From the sequence record OK272486.1: a stretch of 50,987 nucleotides of DNA. One strand, given 5' to 3'. The notes below the pieces were generated by a model. That model worked only from the letters and a program-made list of their open reading frames with translations, had not been told where the DNA came from and did not search any database. Shown piece after piece: positions 4,778-45,343 of the stretch. Numbering within the stretch: the first letter of the stretch is position 1; the number at the start of each line of letters is the position of its first letter. The stretch is from Escherichia phage JLBYU10. A program made the translations under genes and the position numbers.

Positions 4778-5035
4778 ATGAAAAAAGAGAGAAGCGTTTA
4801 TTTAAATGAAACTGGCGAGTGGTTGTTATTTCGCGCTATGGTGTGCGATGCACTTGATAAAAACCCTAACGTGAAAAAGATGATTGATTGCGATCCGTGG
4901 GAATTTTCAAGCGCATTAGATATGAGCTTTGATGAGACAAGAAAACTCCCTCTTGAAAAATGGCACGAACAAATCAGAAATGATATGCAAGAGTTTGTAG
5001 ATTCGTGGAATTTTCAGAACGGAATGATCCACTAA
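4778..5035 (+). CDS. hypothetical protein
   Basis: ORF track; ACGGAG RBS; tightly packed. Confidence 0.45.
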   Translation: MKKERSVYLNETGEWLLFRAMVCDALDKNPNVKKMIDCDPWEFSSALDMSFDETRKLPLEKWHEQIRNDMQEFVDSWNFQNGMIH

Positions 5036-5078
5036 TGGCACTTTTTGTTAAAACGCCCGGCATTTTGTCGGGCATAAT
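5036..5078 (+). promoter_or_regulatory. Motif-type promoter-like unit: TGGCACTTTTTGTTAAAAC, hairpin GCCCGGC..CGGGC, CATAAT
   Basis: Motif immediately after TAA stop; 22-bp spacer with stem-loop; -10-like hexamer. Confidence 0.5.
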
Positions 5079-5104
5079 TATTTCATCGAAACGAACGTGA
5101 GGAA

Positions 5105-5290
5105 ATGAAAATGGTAGTATATAGCAAGAAAGCATTTGACCAGGCGCAACAAGCCGCACGCGAGGCGGTAAAAGGTGGAACGAAAAACAATATGCAGCTT
5201 GATTGGGGCGCTGCAATGATTCTACTTCGCGTTGCATATGGTCACTACCCATTAGAATTTGCGGAGGCATATTATAAGCATGAAGGTTGA
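5105..5290 (+). CDS. hypothetical protein
   Basis: ORF track; GAGGAAATGAAAATG RBS context. Confidence 0.4.
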   Translation: MKMVVYSKKAFDQAQQAAREAVKGGTKNNMQLDWGAAMILLRVAYGHYPLEFAEAYYKHEG

Positions 5291-5522
5291 ACAAGGTAGA
5301 GAGGCGGTATGGAATCACGCTAAAGAATGCGGAATAGCCGACGATATAAAGAAGATCGCGCAATACTTTGATATTGCAGATGTGAGCATAATTAGCGGCG
5401 ACAAGATGACTTTCCTCAAGGAAAGGCCGCGAAAAATGGTAAGAGTTCCAGCAGTTCCAACAAAAATTGATTTCAAAGAGGCAATGGCTAAAATCCGAGA
5501 GCCTCGCAAATATTATAAATGA
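5280..5522 (+). CDS. hypothetical protein
   Basis: ORF 5259..5522 trimmed to Met overlapping upstream stop. Confidence 0.35.
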   Translation: MKVEQGREAVWNHAKECGIADDIKKIAQYFDIADVSIISGDKMTFLKERPRKMVRVPAVPTKIDFKEAMAKIREPRKYYK

Positions 5523-5616
5523 GGATAGTTATCATGTGGCGCTTGTTTGTTCTACCGTTACCCGTTATCATCGCTGTTACAGTTATGTACCATATAGTGA
5601 TGAGATAGGTAGCAGA

Positions 5617-6732
5617 ATGAAAAATGTAAAAATTACAGATGAGCAATTCAAGATCGAACGGGCGGCGGGTAAGACATATAAACAGATCGCTCAAGAGTAC
5701 GGAATGAATGTTAGAAGCGTCGAGCGTCGCGCGGCGCGTCTTGCAAAGCAAGGCCAGGTATCCACCATTGGAGCGCCTGGTTTTGGCGTTCATGGTGAGT
5801 CAGTAATGACTGACAAAGAAGGCAACATAATCCTAAAGTGGACTAAAACCAGCAAGGATAAAGAGCAATTAGAAGCATTAATGCGCGCAGCAATGGAGGC
5901 ATTTAGCGAGGAAGTGCCGCGATTAGATCCGGTTCCATTACAGGAGCGCGACTATAACGAAACGCTTTCCTTGTATCCGATCTTTGACATGCACTTAGGC
6001 GCTATGGCCCATAAGCACGAATGCGGCGAAAATTGGGATACTGCCACGGCAGAGCGCGTTATGAATAACTTTATCGACTATGCTTTAATGTGCGCACCGG
6101 ATAGCGAAAAGGCTGTCATCCTGATTGGTGGCGATATGCTGCATAGCGACGGCCTGGAGGCGGTTACACCTGCAAGCGGTCACGTACTGGATCAAGATAG
6201 TCGATATGCAAAATTGGTTTACGTTGCCATCCGTGCAATGCGACGCGCAATCAATAAAATGTTGTTAAAGCATAAACATGTTGAAGTCCAGATCGTAGAG
6301 GGAAATCATGACCAATCAGGAATGATTTGGCTGCGCGCAGCAATGGCGGCAGCATATGAAAACGAGCCGCGCGTTTACGTTGATGTTTCACCTCGCGTTG
6401 TGCACCACACGCAATACGGAAAAACTTTCCTTGCGTACCATCACGGGCACACAGTGCGTAAACCGGAGACTTTGCTAATGATGTGCGCGTCAGATTGGCG
6501 GGAGGACTTCGGAAACTCAAAAACGATGTATGCGCACGTAGGGCACTGGCATCACCAGACCGTGACAGAAACGTCGCTTGGCATCGTTGAGGTGCATAGC
6601 ACCCTGGCGGCAAAAGACGCATACGCCGCGCGCGGTGGCTGGAGATCTCGACGCCGTGCGGCGGTTATCATTTACGACAAAGAGCATGGAGAGGTGGGGA
6701 GATTTGTTCACTATCCAGAAATGATGAATTGA
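5617..6732 (+). CDS. calcineurin-like metallophosphoesterase with N-terminal HTH
   Basis: GDMLHSD and VEGNHD phosphoesterase-type motifs; N-terminal YKQIAQEYGMNVRSVERRAARL HTH-like; start chosen inside ORF 5467..6732. Confidence 0.45.
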   Translation: MKNVKITDEQFKIERAAGKTYKQIAQEYGMNVRSVERRAARLAKQGQVSTIGAPGFGVHGESVMTDKEGNIILKWTKTSKDKEQLEALMRAAMEAFSEEVPRLDPVPLQERDYNETLSLYPIFDMHLGAMAHKHECGENWDTATAERVMNNFIDYALMCAPDSEKAVILIGGDMLHSDGLEAVTPASGHVLDQDSRYAKLVYVAIRAMRRAINKMLLKHKHVEVQIVEGNHDQSGMIWLRAAMAAAYENEPRVYVDVSPRVVHHTQYGKTFLAYHHGHTVRKPETLLMMCASDWREDFGNSKTMYAHVGHWHHQTVTETSLGIVEVHSTLAAKDAYAARGGWRSRRRAAVIIYDKEHGEVGRFVHYPEMMN

Positions 6733-6878: not shown

Positions 6879-7094
6879 ATGAAAGATTTTATTAACGCAG
6901 CTACCGCCGGATCTGGCGGTTCATCTATCGCAAGCGCCGCTACAGGGCAGTTAACCATTGCTATTGCCAGCTTTGTTTTAATGGCTGCATTCGGTGCATG
7001 GGGCGCTTACCTTCGCTGGCGTGATAGTAAAAAATTCCACGAGGCGATCGAAAAAGGTGATATTCAAAAAGCTATTGAGATCAGGGGCAAGTAA
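6879..7094 (+). CDS. holin
   Basis: 71 aa, hydrophobic helix [20 protein letters not shown], charged C-terminus, directly upstream of endolysin. Confidence 0.55.
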
Positions 7095-7588
7095 TGAGCA
7101 TAAAGAACAGGGTAGCGGCTGCGGCCTTTGGCGTTGCGGTTGCCTTGACTTCTCCACTTCTTGAAGAGATCGAAGGGGTAAGATACAAGCCATACAAAGA
7201 TATTGCGGGGGTATGGACGGTTTGCGCAGGAATCACCGGACCCGATGTTATCCTGGGGAAAACGTACACTAAAAAAGAGTGTGATGCTTTGTTGGCTAAG
7301 CATATCCAGGTTGCTAAAAAGGAAGTTGACAAGCAAGTTAAGGTTGACATTCCTGATAGTATGCGTGCAGCAATGTACTCATTCACTTACAATGCAGGTG
7401 TGGGAGCTTTCAGAAATTCAACAATGCTGAAACTCATCAATCAGGGGAAATTAAACGAGGCTTGCGATCAGCTTTATCGTTGGACTTATTACCATAACCC
7501 AAAAACAGGAAAGCGCGAGAAGTCTAAAGGCTTACTTAACAGGCGCAAGGTCGAATACAAATATTGCACAATGGATCTTAAATTATGA
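7094..7588 (+). CDS. endolysin, lysozyme-type with N-terminal signal-anchor-release (SAR) segment
   Basis: E...C/D...T catalytic spacing EG..YKPYKD..G.WT.C.GIT as in phage lysozymes; hydrophobic N-terminus [13 protein letters not shown]. Confidence 0.7.
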
Positions 7589-7977
7589 AGAAATTTTTAC
7601 TTACACCAATCGCAATGGCGGTGATCTTGTCTGGATGTTCAAGCGTTACGCCACTGACCGGATTAATCGGCAGTAAGCCGGAAATCACAGCGCAGGCTGG
7701 CGCGGAGAACGTGAAGCAGACAGTTGGCATTACAGCAAGGCAGGACGCCAGCACAAAACAGGAAACCACAATAAAGGAATCTGCGGTTGACAAGGTGGAC
7801 ACGTCCAGCAAGAAGGATTTCACAACATCAACCATTCAGGCCAATACCATCAAGGCAGACAAAATTCAGGTCGTGCAGGGTAATAACGGCAGATGGTACG
7901 ATCCAGTAATCATATGCGTGGTTGTGTTTCTTGTGCTGATTTGTCTTTACTGGATAGAAAAGAAAAAGGAGGCTTAA
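7585..7977 (+). CDS. unimolecular spanin (u-spanin)
   Basis: N-terminal lipobox ILSGCSS plus C-terminal transmembrane helix [16 protein letters not shown]; ATGA overlap with endolysin; architecture of T1 gp11. Confidence 0.6.
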
Positions 7978-8253: not shown

Positions 8254-8297
8254 AATATACCCGACACTAGGCCGGGCGTTTTAACAAAAAATGCTAT
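8254..8297 (-). promoter_or_regulatory. Motif-type promoter-like unit (minus strand): ATAGCATTTTTTGTTAAAAC, 22-bp spacer, TATATT
   Basis: Reverse-complement motif overlapping TAG stop of upstream minus-strand ORF. Confidence 0.45.
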
Positions 8298-15633: not shown

Positions 15634-15660
15634 TTGACGGTTAGCGCCAGGATTGTGATC

Positions 15661-15752
15661 GAAATAATCAAAAGTAATCATTCGTAATCAAATAACGTCA
15701 AAATGATGATTGCCTTTGCAAACTTGATGAGAAAAGTAATCACGTTTAATCA
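15661..15752. repeat. Phased short direct repeats (TAATCA at 10-bp spacing, then GTAATCA/TTAATCA)
   Basis: Three TAATCA copies exactly one helical turn apart, two more related copies ~50 bp downstream; upstream of leftward promoter. Confidence 0.5.
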
Positions 15753-15899
15753 TTGGTTGCAGGGGAGATAGTGAAACCCTCCCCTCTTGCCTCACTTTTC
15801 CGCCTGGCTGTCAGTGGTTGTTATGTTCCGTTCCCGCCTGTTCTTTTGTTGACCTTCCGCAAAATACGATAACAAAAAATAACAAACAATACCTATATA

Positions 15900-16165
15900 A
15901 TACATTGAAAAATAAGGATTATTTATTTATATGTATCTATATATTCTCTTTTGTTATCTTGGTTATTGTGGTATTTGGTGGGGGTATATAGTTTTTGTGT
16001 ATCTGTATGTGTGTATGGGTATGTAGGGGCATATATATCTATATGGCACTTTCCGCGAGAAAACTTCGATAACAGGCAATGATAACATTGATTTATAAGG
16101 AAAAATAACGCCAATATTGTTATTGTGCCACCATGTAAAATTGATAAAACACGCGGGAACAAGAA
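15900..16165. repeat. TG/TA-rich non-coding element, copy 1 (homologous to 45000..45240)
   Basis: Shares TTATTTATTTAT-TGTAT...CTTTTGTTATCT...TTGTGGT..TTTGGT and GGGAACAAGAAAAA blocks with copy 2. Confidence 0.6.
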
Positions 16166-16172
16166 AAAACAG

Positions 16173-16201
16173 TTGACACATTAAATAGCATTATTGATAA
16201 T
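16173..16201 (+). promoter_or_regulatory. sigma70-type promoter (TTGACA, 17 bp, GATAAT)
   Basis: Canonical hexamers with 17-bp spacer ~30 bp upstream of first rightward early gene. Confidence 0.6.
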
Positions 16202-16230
16202 GCCGACACCTAACAACCAGGAGGTAGAAA

Positions 16231-16695
16231 ATGAGCGAGCAATCATTCACTGACACGCTGCGCCGTGCCGCTATTATGCTGGCTAATGGCGAGGAAGAGA
16301 CGATCAAGATTCCTGACGCGTATTTGCAGGTCCACATGTTCGGCAAGAAGTCGGCAAGCAATCCGGCGGCCTACATTCGCCAGATCATGAGTCGAGTGCC
16401 AGAAGTCGCCGAGCGGGGGAGCGTATCCGTTACCCGTGGCGTTTACGGGCCGGAAGATGAAAACTTCGGTAGCACTTTCTACGAGGTGCGCATTGTTGAA
16501 GGCCGTCGCAAGGTTTACAACAAAGATGCACTGGAAAGGGCAGTACGCCAGGCTAAGCGCAAGGTTGCAGAGGCGATCATTGATATGTCACCAAACCTGG
16601 CAAACTATGCGCCGGAAGAGTATGAAACATTATCAAAGGCCGTCGCTGACTTTCACGCGATGATCAAAAAAACTTTCCTGGAGGATGAGCAATGA
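16231..16695 (+). CDS. hypothetical early protein
   Basis: ORF track; AGGAGG RBS; first gene after strong promoter. Confidence 0.55.
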   Translation: MSEQSFTDTLRRAAIMLANGEEETIKIPDAYLQVHMFGKKSASNPAAYIRQIMSRVPEVAERGSVSVTRGVYGPEDENFGSTFYEVRIVEGRRKVYNKDALERAVRQAKRKVAEAIIDMSPNLANYAPEEYETLSKAVADFHAMIKKTFLEDEQ

Positions 16696-16964
16696 AAAAG
16701 GCGTTAATCGGCGTTTTGGTGGCAATGGCATTCCTGACCGGATGCGAAGAAGATGGCGCGCATGTTGGCAATGTGCAGATGGCTAACCCTGGCGATGACT
16801 ACAGCGTAAGGGAGCTATTCACCGCCGATGGTTGCACTGTTTACCGATTCTATGACGGTCGCACTGTTTACTTCACCAACTGCAAGGGAACGACTAGCTG
16901 GGAAGTGTCGAAAAGCAACGGCAAAGGCACGAAAACAGAATACATGACCGTTGAGACAAAATAG
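16692..16964 (+). CDS. lipoprotein (possible superinfection-exclusion type)
   Basis: Signal peptide with lipobox FLTGC; ATGA overlap with upstream gene. Confidence 0.5.
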   Translation: MKKALIGVLVAMAFLTGCEEDGAHVGNVQMANPGDDYSVRELFTADGCTVYRFYDGRTVYFTNCKGTTSWEVSKSNGKGTKTEYMTVETK

Positions 16965-29829: not shown

Positions 29830-29848
29830 CGTTTAACAAAAAGTGCTA
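29830..29848 (-). repeat. motif copy in inverted orientation (GTTTAACAAAAAGTGCTAT) upstream of capsid gene
   Basis: Reverse complement of motif inside a rightward operon, next to a terminator. Confidence 0.45.
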
Positions 29849-39456: not shown

Positions 39457-39500
39457 ATAGCACAATATGTTAAAGCGAAAACGGATTTTCGCTTTACAAT
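39457..39500 (+). promoter_or_regulatory. Motif-type promoter-like unit (ATAGCACAATATGTTAAAG), hairpin GCGAAAA..TTTTCGC, TACAAT
   Basis: Motif adjacent to TAA stop of I-like gene; precedes HNH gene inserted in tail module. Confidence 0.45.
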
Positions 39501-39517
39501 TAATTAAGGAGGTGATC

Positions 39518-39994
39518 ATGTGGCGTGATATTTTTTATTATAATGACGGTAAGTTATTTTGGGCTGTAGACGTAGGAAGAAGGATAAAGAAAGGAAGTGA
39601 GGCAGGAAGCGTAAGCAAAAGCAAGAAGAGTGGAGAAAGGGTTAGAATATCAATTGATGGAGAAAGATACTACAGGAGCAGGATAGTTTGGGAAATTCAT
39701 AATGGAGAAATACCGCATGGAATGCAAGTTGATCACATAGATCACAACACAATGAACGACAATATTTCAAACTTAAGACTTGTTAGAATGAGTGTTAACA
39801 ACAAGAATAAGTCGCTTTACAGGAACAGCAAGACGGGAATTACTGGGGTAAACTTTAGTCGCGGAAAATGGATTGCAAGAGCAAAGATTGATGGTGTTAG
39901 GCATGAATTTTACTTTGATTCATTTCAGGATGCGGCAGAAAAGAGGATAGAGATTGAAGTTTTAAACAAATTCCACATAAACCACGGAAAGTAG
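39518..39994 (+). CDS. HNH homing endonuclease (paralog of 11806..12333)
   Basis: ORF 39467..39994 trimmed to Met with AAGGAGG RBS; VDHIDHNTMNDN HNH signature; shared C-terminal ...HGK. Confidence 0.65.
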   Translation: MWRDIFYYNDGKLFWAVDVGRRIKKGSEAGSVSKSKKSGERVRISIDGERYYRSRIVWEIHNGEIPHGMQVDHIDHNTMNDNISNLRLVRMSVNNKNKSLYRNSKTGITGVNFSRGKWIARAKIDGVRHEFYFDSFQDAAEKRIEIEVLNKFHINHGK

Positions 39995-40071: not shown

Positions 40072-43000
40072 ATGGCTAAATATATGATAAGCGGCAGTAA
40101 GGGCGGAAGCAAAAAGCCATACGTGCCAAAAGAGATGGAAGATAACCTGATCTCGATAAACAAGATTAAAGTTTTGCTGGCTGTATCTGATGGCGAGTGC
40201 GATCCAGATTTCACGTTGCGTGATCTTTATCTTGATGATGTTCCGGTTATTGCCAGCGATGGCACTGTTAACTATGAGGGGGTAACGGCTGAATATAGAC
40301 CAGGCACACAGACGCAAGATTACATCCAGGGGTTTACTGACACATCAAGCGAGGTGACAGTTTCGCGAGACATTACAACAGACAATCCCTATATTATCTC
40401 TGTGACAAACAAAAATCTTTCTGCAATAAGAATCAAGATTCTGATGCCAGTTGGCATAAAACAGGAGGATAACGGCGATCTTGTTGGCGTAAGGGTTGAG
40501 TATGCCGTAGATATGGCTATTGATGGCGGTTCTTATAGCGAGGTTATGAGAGATGTAATTGACGGCAAGACAAGATCAGGATACGACCGCAGCAGAAGGA
40601 TTGATCTTCCTAAGTTTGATGAGCGCGTTTTAATCCGAGTAAAGCGACTGACTCCAGACAGCACATCTTCAAAGGTGACTGATAAAATCAAGCTGCAAAG
40701 TTACGCTGAGGTTGTTGATGCAAAATTCCGTTATCCTCTGACTGGCCTTGTATTCGTAGAATTTGACAGCGAATTGTTTCCTACGCAAATCCCTAACATT
40801 TCTATAAAAAAGAAATGGAAGATTATTAATGTGCCAAGCAACTATGATCCAATATCAAGAGAATATCACGGGTCATGGGATGGGACTTTTAAAAAAGCGT
40901 GGTCAAATAATCCCGCTTGGGTTCTTTATGATCTGGTGACAAATCAGCGTTATGGACTTGATCAGCGAGAGTTAGGAATACAGATCGACAAGTGGAGCTT
41001 ATACGAGGCGGGCGTTTACTGTGATCAGAAAGTTCCAGACGGTAAGGGCGGTACAGAGCCTCGCTACCTATGCGATGTAGTTATCCAGAATCAGGTTGAG
41101 GCTTATCAGCTAATCCGTGACATTTGCTCAATCTTTCGCGGAATGAGCTTTTGGAATGGTGAGAGCTTATCAATCGTGATTGATAAGCCGCGCGATCCAT
41201 CATACGTGTTTACTAATGAAAACGTCATCAACGGTGATTTTCAGTACACAACCGCAAGCGAAAAAAGCATGTACACGCAATGTAATGTGACGTTTGACGA
41301 CGAACAAAACATGTATCAACAGGACGTCGAGGGGGTTTTTGATACTGAGGCGGCATTACGATTTGGATACAATCCAACAAGCATTACAGCGATCGGATGT
41401 ACACGCAGGAGTGAAGCGAATCGTCGCGGTCGGTGGGTTTTGAAAACAAACCTTAGAAGCACTACTGTAAACTTTGCTACCGGACTAGAGGGGATGATTC
41501 CATCCATAGGTGATGTGATTGCTATCGCTGATAATTTTCAGAGCAGCAATCTAACGTTAAATCTTTCGGGCCGAGTAATGGAAGTTTCAGGCTTGCAAGT
41601 TTTCGTTCCGTTTAAAGTTGATGCGCGTCCTGGTGATTTTATTATCATCAATAAGCCGGACGGCAAGCCAGTTAAGCGAACGATCTCAAAGGTGAGCGCA
41701 GACGGAAAAACCATTGAGTTAAATATTGGCTTTGGTTTTGATGTTAAGCCTGATACTGTTTTTGCGATTGACCGTACTGACCTTGCGTTGCAGCAATACG
41801 TTGTGACAACTATCAGCAAGGGTGATGACGAAAACGAGTTTACCTATTCAATCACGGCTGTAGAGTACGATCCGAACAAATACGACGAGATTGATTATGG
41901 AGTAAACATTGATGACAGGCCAACTTCAATTGTTCAGCCTGACGTGATGGCAGCGCCTGAGAACGTGCAGATCTCATCTTATTCTCGCGTCGTGCAGGGC
42001 GTCAGCGTTGAAACTATGGTTGTGTCGTGGGAAAAAGTGCCTTATGCGTCACTGTATGAAATGCAATGGCGAAAAGGTGATGGCAACTGGCTGAATACGC
42101 CGCAGACAGCTAACAAAGAGATAGAGGTAGAAGGAATTTATTCTGGTAACTACCAAGTAAGGGTTAGATCTGTTTCTGCAAGCGGTAACACTTCCCCGTG
42201 GTCAAAGATTGCAACCGCAACCCTGACAGGTAAAGTTGGCGAGCCAGGAGCGCCGATTAATCTTACAGCTTCTGATAATGAAGTTTTTGGCATTCGTGTC
42301 AAATGGGGTATGCCGGAAGGATCAGGCGATACGGCTTACATTGAGCTTCACCAATCGCCAGACGGAACGGTTGAAAACTCAAGCCTGCTTACGCTGATTC
42401 CATATCCTCAATATGAGTATTGGCATAGCACGTTACCAGCGGGTCAAGTTGTATGGTATAGAATCCGTAGCGTTGACAGGATCGGCAACGTTTCCGGCTG
42501 GACTGACTTTGTTCGCGGCATGGCGTCAGATGATGTTGAATCTGTTTTAGGCGACATTCTGGACAAGATTTTTGATACCGAAGCGGGTCAAGAAATCAAA
42601 GAGAACGCCATAGACAGTGCAAACAAAATCAAAGACCAGGCGCAATCAATCATCCAGAACGCATTGGCAAACGATGCTGATGTGAAGTGGACGCGAGTAC
42701 AAAACGGAAAGCGTAAGGCTGAATATGGTCATGCACTGGAGCTTATTGCTACCGAAACGGAGGCGCGAGTAACTCAAATCGAAGAGTTAAAGGCGTCAAT
42801 TGATGAAGATATAGTTTCAAGTATCAAAACCGTTCAGGAAGCGATTGCCAACGAATCAGAGACGCGAGCTACTCAAGTGCAGCAACTTGATTCTAAATTT
42901 ACGAAGGAAATAGACGGCGTAAAACAAGATACGGCTGCAAGCATTGGCGAGGTAAGGCAAACCATTACCAATGAATCAGAAGCGCGTGCGCAAGCCGTTC

Positions 43001-43650
43001 AGCAGCTTGACGCTAAGTTTTCGAAAGAGATTAATGACCTTAACGATGCAATCAAGGTTGATGTTGAGGCGAACATATCAGAAGTAAGACAGGCTATCGC
43101 TAATGAGACAGAGGCAAGGGTTCAGGCTGACCAGGCTTTAACAGCCAAATTCGGAGACGTTGAATCAGCACTAGCCGAAAAACTTGATTCGTGGGCTAAC
43201 GTTGATTCGGTTGGCGCTAAGTACGCTATGAAATTGGGCCTTACTTACAAGGGGCAGAAGTACAGCGCAGGCATGATCATGCAGTTGTCGCAATCTTCTC
43301 AAGGCCTGATCTCGCAAATCTTGTTCGATGCTAACAGGTTCGCGATCATGACTAGCTCTACTGGCGGTACGTTTACATTGCCGTTTGTAGTAGAAAATAA
43401 CCAGGTGTTTATCAACAGTTTGTTGGTGAAAAACGGGTCCATTACTAACGCAATGATTGGTAACGTGATTCAGTCAAATAACTTTGTTCAGAATCAGCAA
43501 GGATGGAGGCTTGATAAAAATGGTAACTTTGAGAACTACGGAACTAGAGCGGGAGAAGGAGCTACAAAATTCACTAACGAAGGCTTAAAGGTGAAAGATG
43601 CAAATGGACGATTGAGAGTTGAGATAGGGAGAATAACCGGAAGTTGGTAA
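40072..43650 (+). CDS. tail tip / host specificity protein (lambda J-like)
   Basis: ORF 40021..43650 trimmed to Met; ~1190 aa; last large gene of tail module. Confidence 0.7.
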   Translation: MAKYMISGSKGGSKKPYVPKEMEDNLISINKIKVLLAVSDGECDPDFTLRDLYLDDVPVIASDGTVNYEGVTAEYRPGTQTQDYIQGFTDTSSEVTVSRDITTDNPYIISVTNKNLSAIRIKILMPVGIKQEDNGDLVGVRVEYAVDMAIDGGSYSEVMRDVIDGKTRSGYDRSRRIDLPKFDERVLIRVKRLTPDSTSSKVTDKIKLQSYAEVVDAKFRYPLTGLVFVEFDSELFPTQIPNISIKKKWKIINVPSNYDPISREYHGSWDGTFKKAWSNNPAWVLYDLVTNQRYGLDQRELGIQIDKWSLYEAGVYCDQKVPDGKGGTEPRYLCDVVIQNQVEAYQLIRDICSIFRGMSFWNGESLSIVIDKPRDPSYVFTNENVINGDFQYTTASEKSMYTQCNVTFDDEQNMYQQDVEGVFDTEAALRFGYNPTSITAIGCTRRSEANRRGRWVLKTNLRSTTVNFATGLEGMIPSIGDVIAIADNFQSSNLTLNLSGRVMEVSGLQVFVPFKVDARPGDFIIINKPDGKPVKRTISKVSADGKTIELNIGFGFDVKPDTVFAIDRTDLALQQYVVTTISKGDDENEFTYSITAVEYDPNKYDEIDYGVNIDDRPTSIVQPDVMAAPENVQISSYSRVVQGVSVETMVVSWEKVPYASLYEMQWRKGDGNWLNTPQTANKEIEVEGIYSGNYQVRVRSVSASGNTSPWSKIATATLTGKVGEPGAPINLTASDNEVFGIRVKWGMPEGSGDTAYIELHQSPDGTVENSSLLTLIPYPQYEYWHSTLPAGQVVWYRIRSVDRIGNVSGWTDFVRGMASDDVESVLGDILDKIFDTEAGQEIKENAIDSANKIKDQAQSIIQNALANDADVKWTRVQNGKRKAEYGHALELIATETEARVTQIEELKASIDEDIVSSIKTVQEAIANESETRATQVQQLDSKFTKEIDGVKQDTAASIGEVRQTITNESEARAQAVQQLDAKFSKEINDLNDAIKVDVEANISEVRQAIANETEARVQADQALTAKFGDVESALAEKLDSWANVDSVGAKYAMKLGLTYKGQKYSAGMIMQLSQSSQGLISQILFDANRFAIMTSSTGGTFTLPFVVENNQVFINSLLVKNGSITNAMIGNVIQSNNFVQNQQGWRLDKNGNFENYGTRAGEGATKFTNEGLKVKDANGRLRVEIGRITGSW

Positions 43651-43680
43651 AAAAAGGGGGCATAGCCCCCTTTAATTTTA
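43651..43680. terminator. bidirectional rho-independent terminator
   Basis: GGGGGC-ATA-GCCCCC stem flanked by A-run and T-run between convergent genes. Confidence 0.6.
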
Positions 43681-44292
43681 ATCATAGTGTGATGAATTTA
43701 TAACCAAAACAGATGAAGCCGTGTAAATACCAACAGGACCAGAAGTTTGTGCAACCTGCCTAGATAAAGAATATACCCCGTTGCCATACGCGGCAGCTTG
43801 AGACTCAAATATCATGAATCCACCTAAAGACGGATTACGCACAGAGTTTAAAGCTGTTAGTGACGGCATGATGGCGCAAGGGTATCCCAAGTTAACGTCA
43901 AAAGTGATCCCGCTTACAGATACAAGTTTTGCATCTAAAGGCTTCATCTTTCCATGATAAACCATCTCACCATTAGCATTATAAAAAGCTATTCCGTGAC
44001 TGCCAGGAGGAGTAACCATATTGCTAAAAGCATAAACAAATACCTCACCTTGATTGTCGGACTTTTCTATCTTTATTGCGTGCTTCCCACCATTATTAAA
44101 TTGAGTAAATGCTATGTATGATTTTGATGTTAACCTTACAAAAAAGAAGCACGGTCTATTTATTGGTATAGAAGTATTAAAAACGGTTCCTGTTTTTGCT
44201 GATATTTTACCTTTATCTATAAGGTTAACAGGAGTGAAATCTGGACTTAACCACAATGATCCGTCTGGTTTTTTTATGCTCATCCCGTACAT
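43678..44292 (-). CDS. putative receptor-binding protein
   Basis: ORF 43678..44304 trimmed to Met with GGGGG RBS; leftward locus directly after J-like gene, co-transcribed with lipoprotein. Confidence 0.35.
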   Translation of the reverse strand: MYGMSIKKPDGSLWLSPDFTPVNLIDKGKISAKTGTVFNTSIPINRPCFFFVRLTSKSYIAFTQFNNGGKHAIKIEKSDNQGEVFVYAFSNMVTPPGSHGIAFYNANGEMVYHGKMKPLDAKLVSVSGITFDVNLGYPCAIMPSLTALNSVRNPSLGGFMIFESQAAAYGNGVYSLSRQVAQTSGPVGIYTASSVLVINSSHYD

Positions 44293-44294
44293 TA

Positions 44295-44573
44295 TTACCC
44301 CCAAAAAGTATATATATATCTTGAGTCAGATCCAGAAAGTCCGCTCCATGTAACGGTATCACCACTTACACCTAAACTTGGAGCGCCAGGATCTCCTCCG
44401 CGCCACGAATTCATTCCAACATATATTGCTTTCAACGACTTACCTGGCGGCCTGTTTGAGTAGGTCTTACTGCCAGATGATTGAGTAAATTTATCCAAGA
44501 AAAAAACTGGAGTTAAAAGGCCAGTAACATTTCTACCTTGCTCATCATATATTGCATACCCATATTCAGCCAT
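44295..44573 (-). CDS. hypothetical protein in receptor-binding locus
   Basis: ORF track; GAGGTG RBS. Confidence 0.4.
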   Translation of the reverse strand: MAEYGYAIYDEQGRNVTGLLTPVFFLDKFTQSSGSKTYSNRPPGKSLKAIYVGMNSWRGGDPGAPSLGVSGDTVTWSGLSGSDSRYIYTFWG

Positions 44574-44841
44574 TTTTGCACCTCAAATCAATGAATTTTC
44601 TTTCATCTTGCCAACGGTTGATAAATTTAACTTCTTTATTGTCAACGCTCAACCTGTATTGCTTTTGGCTGAATCTGTTTTCGCGTACCGCATTAATTTT
44701 AACTTCATGGAATCCGTTAACAGGGAATGTTTTAACGTTAAATTTTGCCGTGCAATCGATCTCCTTGAAGTTGCCAGTAGGCGAAGAAGAACATCCGGTC
44801 AGGGCGGCTACGGTGGCGATAACTGCGATTAATTTTTTCAT
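44566..44841 (-). CDS. lipoprotein (Cor/Llp-like superinfection exclusion candidate)
   Basis: ORF 44566..44847 trimmed to ATG; signal peptide with lipobox ALTGCSS; AAGGGG RBS. Confidence 0.5.
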   Translation of the reverse strand: MKKLIAVIATVAALTGCSSSPTGNFKEIDCTAKFNVKTFPVNGFHEVKINAVRENRFSQKQYRLSVDNKEVKFINRWQDERKFIDLRCKNG

Positions 44842-44872
44842 CTTCAATACCCCTTAGTTGTTGTTGGCTGTA

Positions 44873-44915
44873 ACTATACACGATCCGGCAAGCCGAGTTT
44901 AGCAAAAAGTGCTAC
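44873..44915 (-). promoter_or_regulatory. Motif-type promoter-like unit (minus): GTAGCACTTTTTGCTAAAC, 21-bp spacer, TATAGT
   Basis: Reverse-complement motif heading leftward lipoprotein/receptor-binding operon. Confidence 0.5.
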
Positions 44916-44999
44916 TTGTTATTTTTTGTTTTCCGGTGCTATCGGATTTAAGACGGCGTAAATTTAGCGCAAATTTTAGCCAACATAAGAACAATAAAT

Positions 45000-45240
45000 A
45001 ATCAATAAAATATGTATATACATATAAAATCAATAGTTTATTTATTTATGTATGTGTATTTGTTTTTTTCTTGTTATCTGTGTTTCTTGTGGTTTTGGTT
45101 GTTTGTGGTGATTTTTCTTTCTGAGTATCTGTATGTGCCATCATTCATGTGTATGTATATAATCCGGCGTATCTGAGAGAACAAGGGAACAAGAAAAATA
45201 ACACATATTAATCATTAACTTACGCGTCAAATTTGTTTTA
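45000..45240. repeat. TG/TA-rich non-coding element, copy 2 (homologous to 15900..16165)
   Basis: Shares TTTATTTATTTATGTATGTGTATTTGT...CTTGTTATCTGTGTTTCTTGTGGTTTTGGT and GGGAACAAGAAAAA blocks with copy 1. Confidence 0.6.
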
Positions 45241-45285
45241 TTGCCATCTGAGAACGCTTAGAAAACAGAAAAAACAAAACAACTA

Positions 45286-45313
45286 TTGACTAAATCAATC
45301 AAATGGCTACAAT
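45286..45313 (+). promoter_or_regulatory. sigma70-type promoter (TTGACT, 16 bp, TACAAT)
   Basis: Near-canonical hexamers ~30 bp upstream of exonuclease gene. Confidence 0.55.
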
Positions 45314-45343
45314 GCACACACAAAGCAACGAGGAGCATTAAAG

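Follow-up and report, generated by a model that had tools for sequence, protein, structure and literature searches.

A leftward gene cassette behind the J-like gene of Escherichia phage JLBYU10 is a candidate host-recognition and self-exclusion locus of Warwickvirus

We analysed the 50,987-nt stretch of DNA in sequence record OK272486.1 (the window, to which all positions refer) from Escherichia phage JLBYU10, a T1-like siphovirus that belongs to Warwickvirus (Drexlerviridae, Tempevirinae). Three minus-strand genes lie there between a J-like gene and the exonuclease VIII operon, and we propose that they form a cassette for host recognition and self-exclusion. They were present both in the list of open reading frames (ORFs) and in the raw sequence, in agreement with an earlier note, made from the letters alone, which had described a leftward three-gene operon after the J-like gene. 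The first gene encodes a 91-aa lipoprotein of the Cor family, predicted to reside in the outer membrane (44566..44841, minus strand), the second a 92-aa protein (44295..44573, minus) and the third a 204-aa receptor-binding protein (43678..44292, minus). The lipoprotein stop codon and the start of the 92-aa gene overlap by 8 nt, 2 nt separate the stop of the latter from the ATG of the 204-aa gene, and each of the three starts is preceded by a Shine-Dalgarno sequence; as far as sequence can tell, the three genes are translationally coupled. A mechanical ORF call placed the start of the last gene at a TTG four codons 5' of the ATG at 44292, but the 204-aa form is the correct one, since all homologues begin with MYGM. 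A Pfam scan returned nothing specific for any of the three proteins. The J-like central tail fibre/tail tip protein (40072..43650, plus strand; PHROG 31) matched the Pfam families FNIII-A_GpJ, Phage-tail_3 and Phage_Tail_Tip, its start being taken from the annotation of Escherichia phage vB_EcoS-95, and is presumed to be the attachment site of the receptor-binding proteins.

The cassette is shared with close relatives. The 1.8-kb region is 99.2% identical to that of vB_EcoS-95 (published in 2019), a phage with which JLBYU10 shares all three proteins at 100% identity, and about 87% identical to that of Bas04 FritzSarasin, JK16 and many other Warwickvirus members; the cassette genes are conserved in 78 phage records. 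Compared with Bas04, identity amounts to 86.8% for the 204-aa protein, 93.5% for the 92-aa protein and 91.2% for the lipoprotein, but to 99.4% for the neighbouring exonuclease VIII, which indicates that the cassette is a local hot spot of divergence.

The putative promoter of the operon (44873..44914, minus strand) is a copy of a phage-wide 21-nt direct repeat combined with a -10-like TATAGT. At this site TAGCACTTTTTG occupies positions 44914..44903 on the minus strand, 73 nt upstream of the lipoprotein ATG; the upstream element reads TAGCACTTTTTGCTAAAC and the TATAGT follows the 3' hexamer of the motif by 18 nt. When at most one mismatch is allowed, the window contains 16 copies of the 12-mer, nearly all of them between genes and oriented toward the downstream gene, and 14 of the 16 copies have a TATAAT-like hexamer at a constant offset. 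Copies of the 21-nt repeat, TAGCACTTTTTGTTAAAAC, lie at 1476, 3965, 5036, 16962, 18373, 20988 and 50901 on the plus strand and at 8296, 10458, 11132, 13822, 14328, 15632, 29848, 33600 and 44914 on the minus strand. The copies at 29848 and 33600 lie antisense within the plus-strand block of structural genes, where a simple promoter role gives no explanation for them. The repeat element is also found at the equivalent position in Bas04 and vB_EcoS-95, and eight copies are present in T1. In TLS, T1 and Rtp, the element has been described before as a 21-nt direct repeat, aaATAGCACnnnTTGnTAAAA, located about 76 nt in front of start codons, for which a role as promoter enhancer or stoperator has been proposed. 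Thus the motif that the earlier note called a motif promoter does lie upstream of the operon, while its promoter activity is suggested by likeness to this repeat family. At the other end, between the convergent J and 204-aa genes, a GC hairpin (GGGGGC-ATA-GCCCCC, 43656..43670) within a bidirectional intrinsic terminator (43653..43673, both strands) is followed by seven T on the minus strand and by AATTTT on the plus strand, where a terminator was called by the scan. With T-tracts on both strands, the hairpin can serve as a terminator for the J transcript as well as for the leftward operon.

The lipoprotein begins with MKKLIAVIATVAALTG, directly followed by CSS, so that the lipobox reported earlier as ALTGCSS is a canonical one (LTG before the lipidated Cys). 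Cleavage would leave a mature protein of 75 aa, and the Ser at position +2 predicts sorting to the outer membrane according to the +2 rule of E. coli. A signal peptide, a lipobox and a small mature protein (about 60-75 residues) are traits of Cor. The lipoprotein matched PHROG 1119 (Cor) over its full length (E 6e-8), and its family aligned end to end with Cor of T1, ES18 and Stx2-converting phage 86 (hhalign probability 96.3%, E 1.9e-9). Cysteines C17, C30 and C88 are invariant in 13 sequences, and C30 and C88 align with C25 and C73 of T1 Cor. In Llp of T5 (Cys11-Cys58, PDB 8A60) and in Rtp45, a cysteine pair ties together the ends of the mature protein; the pattern of the JLBYU10 lipoprotein, i.e. 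a lipid-bearing Cys and a pair joining both termini, matches that of Llp and Cor. Apart from a sub-threshold match to Cor, an NCBIfam scan gave only signal-peptide noise (TrbH, TrbK, TraV), and searches of the PDB with the lipoprotein, singly and as a profile, found nothing.

The two other proteins also belong to families known from T1-like tails. The 204-aa protein matched PHROG 425 ('membrane associated protein', E 5e-51), to which N15 gp23 also belongs, and its family, for which an exhaustive profile search yielded 129 representatives, aligned with gp31 of T1 and ES18 (hhalign probability 95.5%, E 1.4e-8, residues 2-205 against 3-229). The 92-aa protein matched PHROG 557 ('outer membrane protein', E 6e-21), a family that includes N15 gp22, and aligned with T1 gp32, ES18 gp30 and gp27 of Stx2-converting phage 86. 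The same three families thus make up the genes that follow J in T1 (gp32, gp31 and Cor) and in ES18 (gp30, gp31 and gp32), and a PHROG 425 gene adjoins the 3' end of J, with the small partner gene before it, in the window, T1, ES18, Stx2-converting phage 86 and a further contig (L008). According to PMC13164509 (section 2.5), the small 'outer membrane protein' is missing from the BtuB-dependent Tempevirinae. The PHROG 557 match indicates that, on the contrary, they possess it, and the profile search in that study probably missed it.

Proteins of 309-325 aa in which a 204-like part starts near residue 100 (P0081, P0082, P0094, P0108, P0126 and P0131) provided further information on this pair. 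Their first 80 residues aligned with the 92-aa family (hhalign probability 93.3%, E 2.7e-7) and the remainder with the 204-aa family (99.5%, E 2e-22); in Pantoea phage Vid5, the fused gene (4992-5972) lies directly behind the J-like gene. We had considered these matches as candidate LptD-type proteins, an assignment that was rejected, as they are fused 92+204 proteins of Pantoea/Pectobacterium-type phages. Such 'Rosetta stone' fusions indicate that the members of the 92/204 pair function as a single unit. We infer both the tip position and the stoichiometry of the 92-aa protein, which we regard as a small tail-tip accessory and partner of the 204-aa protein.

The earlier claim that the two proteins share short sequence blocks held in part. 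Neither a direct comparison (BLASTP, E 0.28) nor a comparison of the family profiles (probability 8%) gave a significant similarity between them, but a ten-residue motif, [YHW]G.[AS][IFT][YKW][DKN]..G, does recur. In the six-frame translation it has exactly three sites, one at the N-terminus of each of the two proteins and the third at residue 99 of the 204-aa protein, this count being a post hoc one as the pattern was derived from these same sites. Independent support came from T1, in which the motif fits the N-terminus of gp32 and the position in mid-gp31 that aligns with the 204-aa site. The motif may represent a repeated strand-hairpin element or an ancient duplication.

We considered the possibility that the 92-aa and 204-aa proteins reside in the host membrane and cooperate with Cor in superinfection exclusion. 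This is what their PHROG names and categories imply and what PMC13164509 assumes from the adjacency to cor, and in JLBYU10 the two genes do share an operon with the lipoprotein. Yet, no signal peptide or hydrophobic segment was found in either protein, and published estimates of membrane affinity for their homologues are low (Matusiak 2025). Furthermore, mass spectrometry of purified vB_EcoS-95 virions detected vBEcoS95_83 (132.4 kDa), vBEcoS95_84 (22.0 kDa) and vBEcoS95_85 (10.0 kDa, 55% coverage), which GenBank tags and computed masses identify as J, the 204-aa protein and the 92-aa protein, respectively; the lipoprotein, vBEcoS95_86, was not among the proteins detected. The two small proteins thus belong to the virion, which argues against the exclusion role suggested in PMC13164509. 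In T1, ES18 and Vid5, moreover, the corresponding genes are in the tail operon directly behind J. Taken with the structural match described below, these findings make a membrane role very improbable.

The 204-aa protein has the fold of a receptor-binding protein. Its only strong structural match was the receptor-binding protein of phage Oekolampad solved on LptDE (PDB 9RPT chain C). A search of PDB sequences with the 204-aa protein found nothing, a comparison of all three families with the Oekolampad proteins by hhalign matched the signal peptide alone, and neither sequence nor structural similarity to receptor-binding proteins of the T5 pb5 type was found. Models of homologues of the pair in Dhillonvirus JLBYU60, Stx phage 24B and a Pseudomonas podovirus (Littlefixvirus) have been published (Matusiak 2025). 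According to these AlphaFold-Multimer predictions, a small Ig-like and a 'hand-like' protein cap a J-like spike that has no receptor domain of its own; among the candidate partners of FhuA or BamA, the hand-like protein scored best.

Could the J-like protein alone recognise the receptor, the small proteins being assembly chaperones or non-essential decorations of the tail? Lambda J binds LamB through its own C-terminus, TolC-specific Drexlerviridae lack the locus and have an extended J (Maffei 2021), Lewis et al. treat J as the receptor-binding protein, and the C-terminal tip of J co-varies with the type of receptor. Two large data sets nevertheless speak against this explanation, as the locus allele matched the receptor without exception in both of these independent surveys (Maffei 2021; bioRxiv 2026.04.02.716166). 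In addition, the Oekolampad protein, of homologous fold, binds LptD directly, both small proteins are retained in the mature virion, and the C-terminus of J in JLBYU10 is a Phage_Tail_Tip domain without an extra receptor domain. We consider it improbable that J acts alone, and favour the 204-aa protein, together with its 92-aa partner, as the receptor-binding unit.

The receptor of JLBYU10 is listed as 'unknown' by its authors, and the earlier note held that receptor specificity could not be read from the sequence. This proved too cautious, as phenotyped relatives with about 87% identical proteins predict BtuB, the vitamin B12 transporter. Bas04 is BtuB-dependent in the BASEL tables, and a genome-wide transposon screen with this phage identified btuB, sdaC and dcrB (bioRxiv 10.64898/2026.04.02.716166, supplement). 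BtuB is used by all four Warwickviruses tested, RB36, JK16, Bas04 and Kameto (bioRxiv 2026.04.02.716166), and the JLBYU Warwickviruses, which are 99% identical at the locus, are not FhuA-dependent (Lewis et al.). Members of the BtuB-type class of receptor-binding proteins share >30% identity over >99% coverage (bioRxiv 2026.04.02.716166); the 204-aa protein is 86.8% identical to the Bas04 protein over 100% of the latter, although the identifiers of the receptor-binding proteins in that study could not be mapped to GenBank tags. From the comparison with these relatives, BtuB is the best prediction for JLBYU10, and one that we make with good confidence.

A different receptor, or a second one beside BtuB, appears unlikely. 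The 204-aa protein differs from that of Bas04 at 27 of 204 positions, dual-receptor Drexlerviridae exist, the closest JLBYU relatives formally have an 'unknown' receptor (Lewis et al.), and homologues with 47% identity occur in Stx phages, for which BamA is the reported receptor; the latter indicates that identity thresholds alone do not fix the receptor. Against this stand the four phenotyped Warwickviruses, all of which use BtuB, and the identity shared within the class, for which >30% suffices. Furthermore, the substitutions relative to an about 86% identical Bas04-like row, as judged by eye from the alignment, appear scattered and mostly conservative, and J and its Bas04 counterpart are nearly identical over their last 60 residues. 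The recovery of sdaC and dcrB in the Bas04 screen suggests that phages with the Warwickvirus receptor module probably also need an inner-membrane or periplasmic route of entry.

Position, homology to Cor and cysteine pattern together suggest that the lipoprotein acts by a mechanism like that of Llp and Rtp45. Llp on FhuA and Rtp45 on LptD (Dunbar 2025) bind the periplasmic face of their target and thereby induce changes that abolish binding of the phage protein, and the authors of the Llp structure proposed that the mechanism extends to other TonB-dependent transporters. Cor-like genes have been reported in BtuB-dependent Tempevirinae (PMC13164509, 2026). By analogy, the JLBYU10 lipoprotein would be a superinfection-exclusion protein that blocks the phage's own receptor, BtuB.

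These observations can be combined into one model. A single leftward transcript would start at the promoter-like repeat copy and end at the bidirectional terminator behind J. After export and lipidation, the Cor-family lipoprotein would be placed in the inner leaflet of the outer membrane, and the 92-aa (beta-rich) and 204-aa (two-domain, all-beta) proteins would form the terminal receptor-binding unit, in which the 204-aa protein would contact BtuB, a TonB-dependent transporter of the outer membrane. In the infected cell, the lipoprotein would bind the periplasmic face of BtuB and close it to further phage, in the way that T5 Llp acts on FhuA; both superinfection and the loss of progeny on cell debris would thereby be prevented. 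The earlier proposal of a receptor-binding locus after J, paired with a Cor/Llp-like lipoprotein, is supported by the homology to Cor, by the presence of the two small proteins in virions and by the published class of such loci. For the cassette as proposed in full, we estimate a probability of about 75%.

Several points weigh against this model. In the published AlphaFold3 prediction of the Bas04 protein with BtuB, ipTM was only 0.47 (bioRxiv 2026.04.02.716166). The 204-aa protein and the Oekolampad protein, compared by sequence, gave an hhalign probability of less than 1%, and the two are therefore not placed in one sequence family. A scan for consensus sigma-70 promoters upstream of the lipoprotein made no call on the minus strand, where a good -35 hexamer is absent; the scan missed the copy at 44914 because its -35-like hexamer is weak. 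An exclusion gene that is co-transcribed with virion genes also leaves the timing of its expression unexplained. Finally, the lipoprotein scored 18.6 bits with the NCBIfam model of Cor (NF047972), below the curated cut-off of 31, and is therefore to be seen as a divergent relative of Cor rather than an equivalog.

The failed cut-off also bears on whether the lipoprotein blocks BtuB at all, rather than interfering further along the infection, for example with DNA entry through SdaC/DcrB or with TonB coupling, or having a function other than exclusion. The protein has no known phenotype, its superposition on T5 Llp (PDB 8A60 chain B) showed a structural similarity that is non-specific, and Bas04 needs sdaC and dcrB as well. 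The 92/204 pair is, furthermore, found without an adjacent lipoprotein in Stx phages and contig L008; in Stx2-converting phage 86 (5714-6618), for instance, it follows a tail fibre gene and is itself followed by lom, with no lipoprotein gene adjacent. On the other hand, the lipoprotein is homologous to Cor end to end, including both cysteines, and its homologues were found only on contigs of the size of Drexlerviridae genomes. It also shares its position in the locus with Cor, Llp and Rtp45, and each of these three targets the cognate receptor. A role other than blocking BtuB is in our view doubtful, though it deserves some weight, and we retain the proposal that the lipoprotein excludes superinfecting phage at BtuB.

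A second lipoprotein (DUF4884; 16692..16964, plus strand) is encoded in an early-type operon and was also mentioned in the earlier note, whose description of it (unrelated to the first, with a lipobox FLTGC, second gene of the early block) proved accurate. It begins with MKKALIGVLVAMAFLTG, directly followed by CEED, the lipobox being FLTG before the Cys, and matched Pfam at 33 bits (cut-off 30) and PHROG 6360. The first gene of the operon, which follows a near-consensus sigma-70 promoter (TTGACA-17-GATAAT) at 16172, has a stop codon that overlaps the start of the lipoprotein gene. BLASTP gave no alignment between the two lipoproteins. Homologues of the DUF4884 protein occur in Drexlerviridae of every receptor type (Rtp, LptD; JLBYU41, FhuA; Bas04, BtuB) and in Serratia myophages, a distribution that argues against a receptor-specific role in exclusion. 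Within Warwickvirus it has two alleles, one with >92% identity in tonnikala-like phages and one with about 48% in Bas04 and JLBYU26; since at the receptor locus these phages hardly differ from the window, the mosaic exchange of DUF4884 is independent of receptor type. A literature search on DUF4884 found nothing functional. The possibility that either lipoprotein is a spanin was rejected, the lysis genes (endolysin and Rz-like spanin) being located at 7094-7977.

Two other features of the window were observed. The intergenic regions 15640-16230 and 44842-45343 are unusually long, rich in A+T and TG, and mutually alignable over about 380 nt. Each ends in a near-consensus rightward sigma-70 promoter, the one at 16172 mentioned above and TTGACT-16-TACAAT at 45286, respectively; duplication of an early control region, or an origin-like nature of the DNA, would be possible explanations. 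A 175-aa ORF (39467-39994, plus strand) that separates the tail-assembly gene from J has an HNH-like motif (VDHIDHN...N), so that its product is probably a homing endonuclease, the gene having been inserted into the tail operon.

Loci of this class have already been published (Maffei 2021; Matusiak 2025; Dunbar 2025; bioRxiv 2026.04.02.716166; PMC13164509), with an earlier description in Wietzorrek 2006, as cited in PMC13164509. The closest counterparts are the BtuB-dependent Warwickviruses Bas04, JK16, RB36 and Kameto, which have the same gene order, orientation and promoter repeat and 87-94% identical proteins. From these, JLBYU10 shows no difference in kind; its locus is a sequence variant, identical to that of vB_EcoS-95. 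With the FhuA-type gp32-gp31-Cor cassettes of T1, N15, HK022, ES18 and phi80, all three genes are homologous (PHROG 557, 425 and 1119), and the location between J and the exonuclease VIII operon is that of the T1-type cassette, as is the order of the small protein before the large one. Identity is, however, only 20-25%, and the predicted receptor is BtuB, not FhuA. Furthermore, in T1 and ES18 the pair lies on the strand of J, in the tail operon, and cor alone is on the opposite strand, whereas in JLBYU10 the pair is inverted and co-transcribed behind the lipoprotein.

More distant systems resemble the cassette in part. The LptD-type locus of Oekolampad is also a leftward operon in which the lipoprotein comes first and the receptor-binding protein second, but it encodes a single 321-aa protein that binds LptD, in contrast with the 92+204 pair of JLBYU10; neither its receptor-binding protein and superinfection-exclusion lipoprotein nor Rtp44 and Rtp45 have detectable sequence similarity to the JLBYU10 cassette. 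T5 (pb5 and Llp) and BF23 follow the same logic, with a receptor-binding protein gene beside that of a small outer-membrane lipoprotein by which the same TonB-dependent transporter is blocked on its periplasmic side, and Llp and the JLBYU10 lipoprotein are alike in having their termini tied together by a cysteine pair. The tip proteins of JLBYU60, Stx phage 24B and Littlefixvirus belong to the same two families as the JLBYU10 pair (Matusiak 2025), but their genes lie on the strand of J with no Cor-like gene adjacent (lom taking that place in Stx phages), and their receptors are FhuA or BamA. In short-tailed Stx phages (about 100 records), the large protein is 47% identical to the 204-aa protein, vs about 25% for T1 and ES18.

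The structural link between the BtuB/FhuA-type proteins and an LptD-binding protein qualifies the description of the four receptor classes as 'unrelated' (bioRxiv 2026.04.02.716166). We slightly favour the view that the FhuA-, BtuB- and BamA-type tip proteins, and distantly the LptD-binding one, derive from one ancestral two-part unit, split (92+204) or fused (309-325 aa), which travelled with a Cor-family lipoprotein that was retargeted from FhuA to BtuB.

The main biology, in which a receptor-binding locus follows J and is paired with a cognate exclusion lipoprotein, was thus known, and to it the present analysis adds the structural link to the LptD type, the fusion evidence for a two-part unit, the evidence from virion proteomics and the presence of the PHROG 557 protein in Tempevirinae. 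It also corrects three misleading database names and makes BtuB predictable as the receptor of JLBYU10 and of many near-identical relatives. If the tip proteins do derive from one ancestral unit with a retargeted lipoprotein, the cassettes of Warwickvirus and T1 would constitute a homologous pair with which specificity could be mapped on both faces of TonB-dependent transporters.

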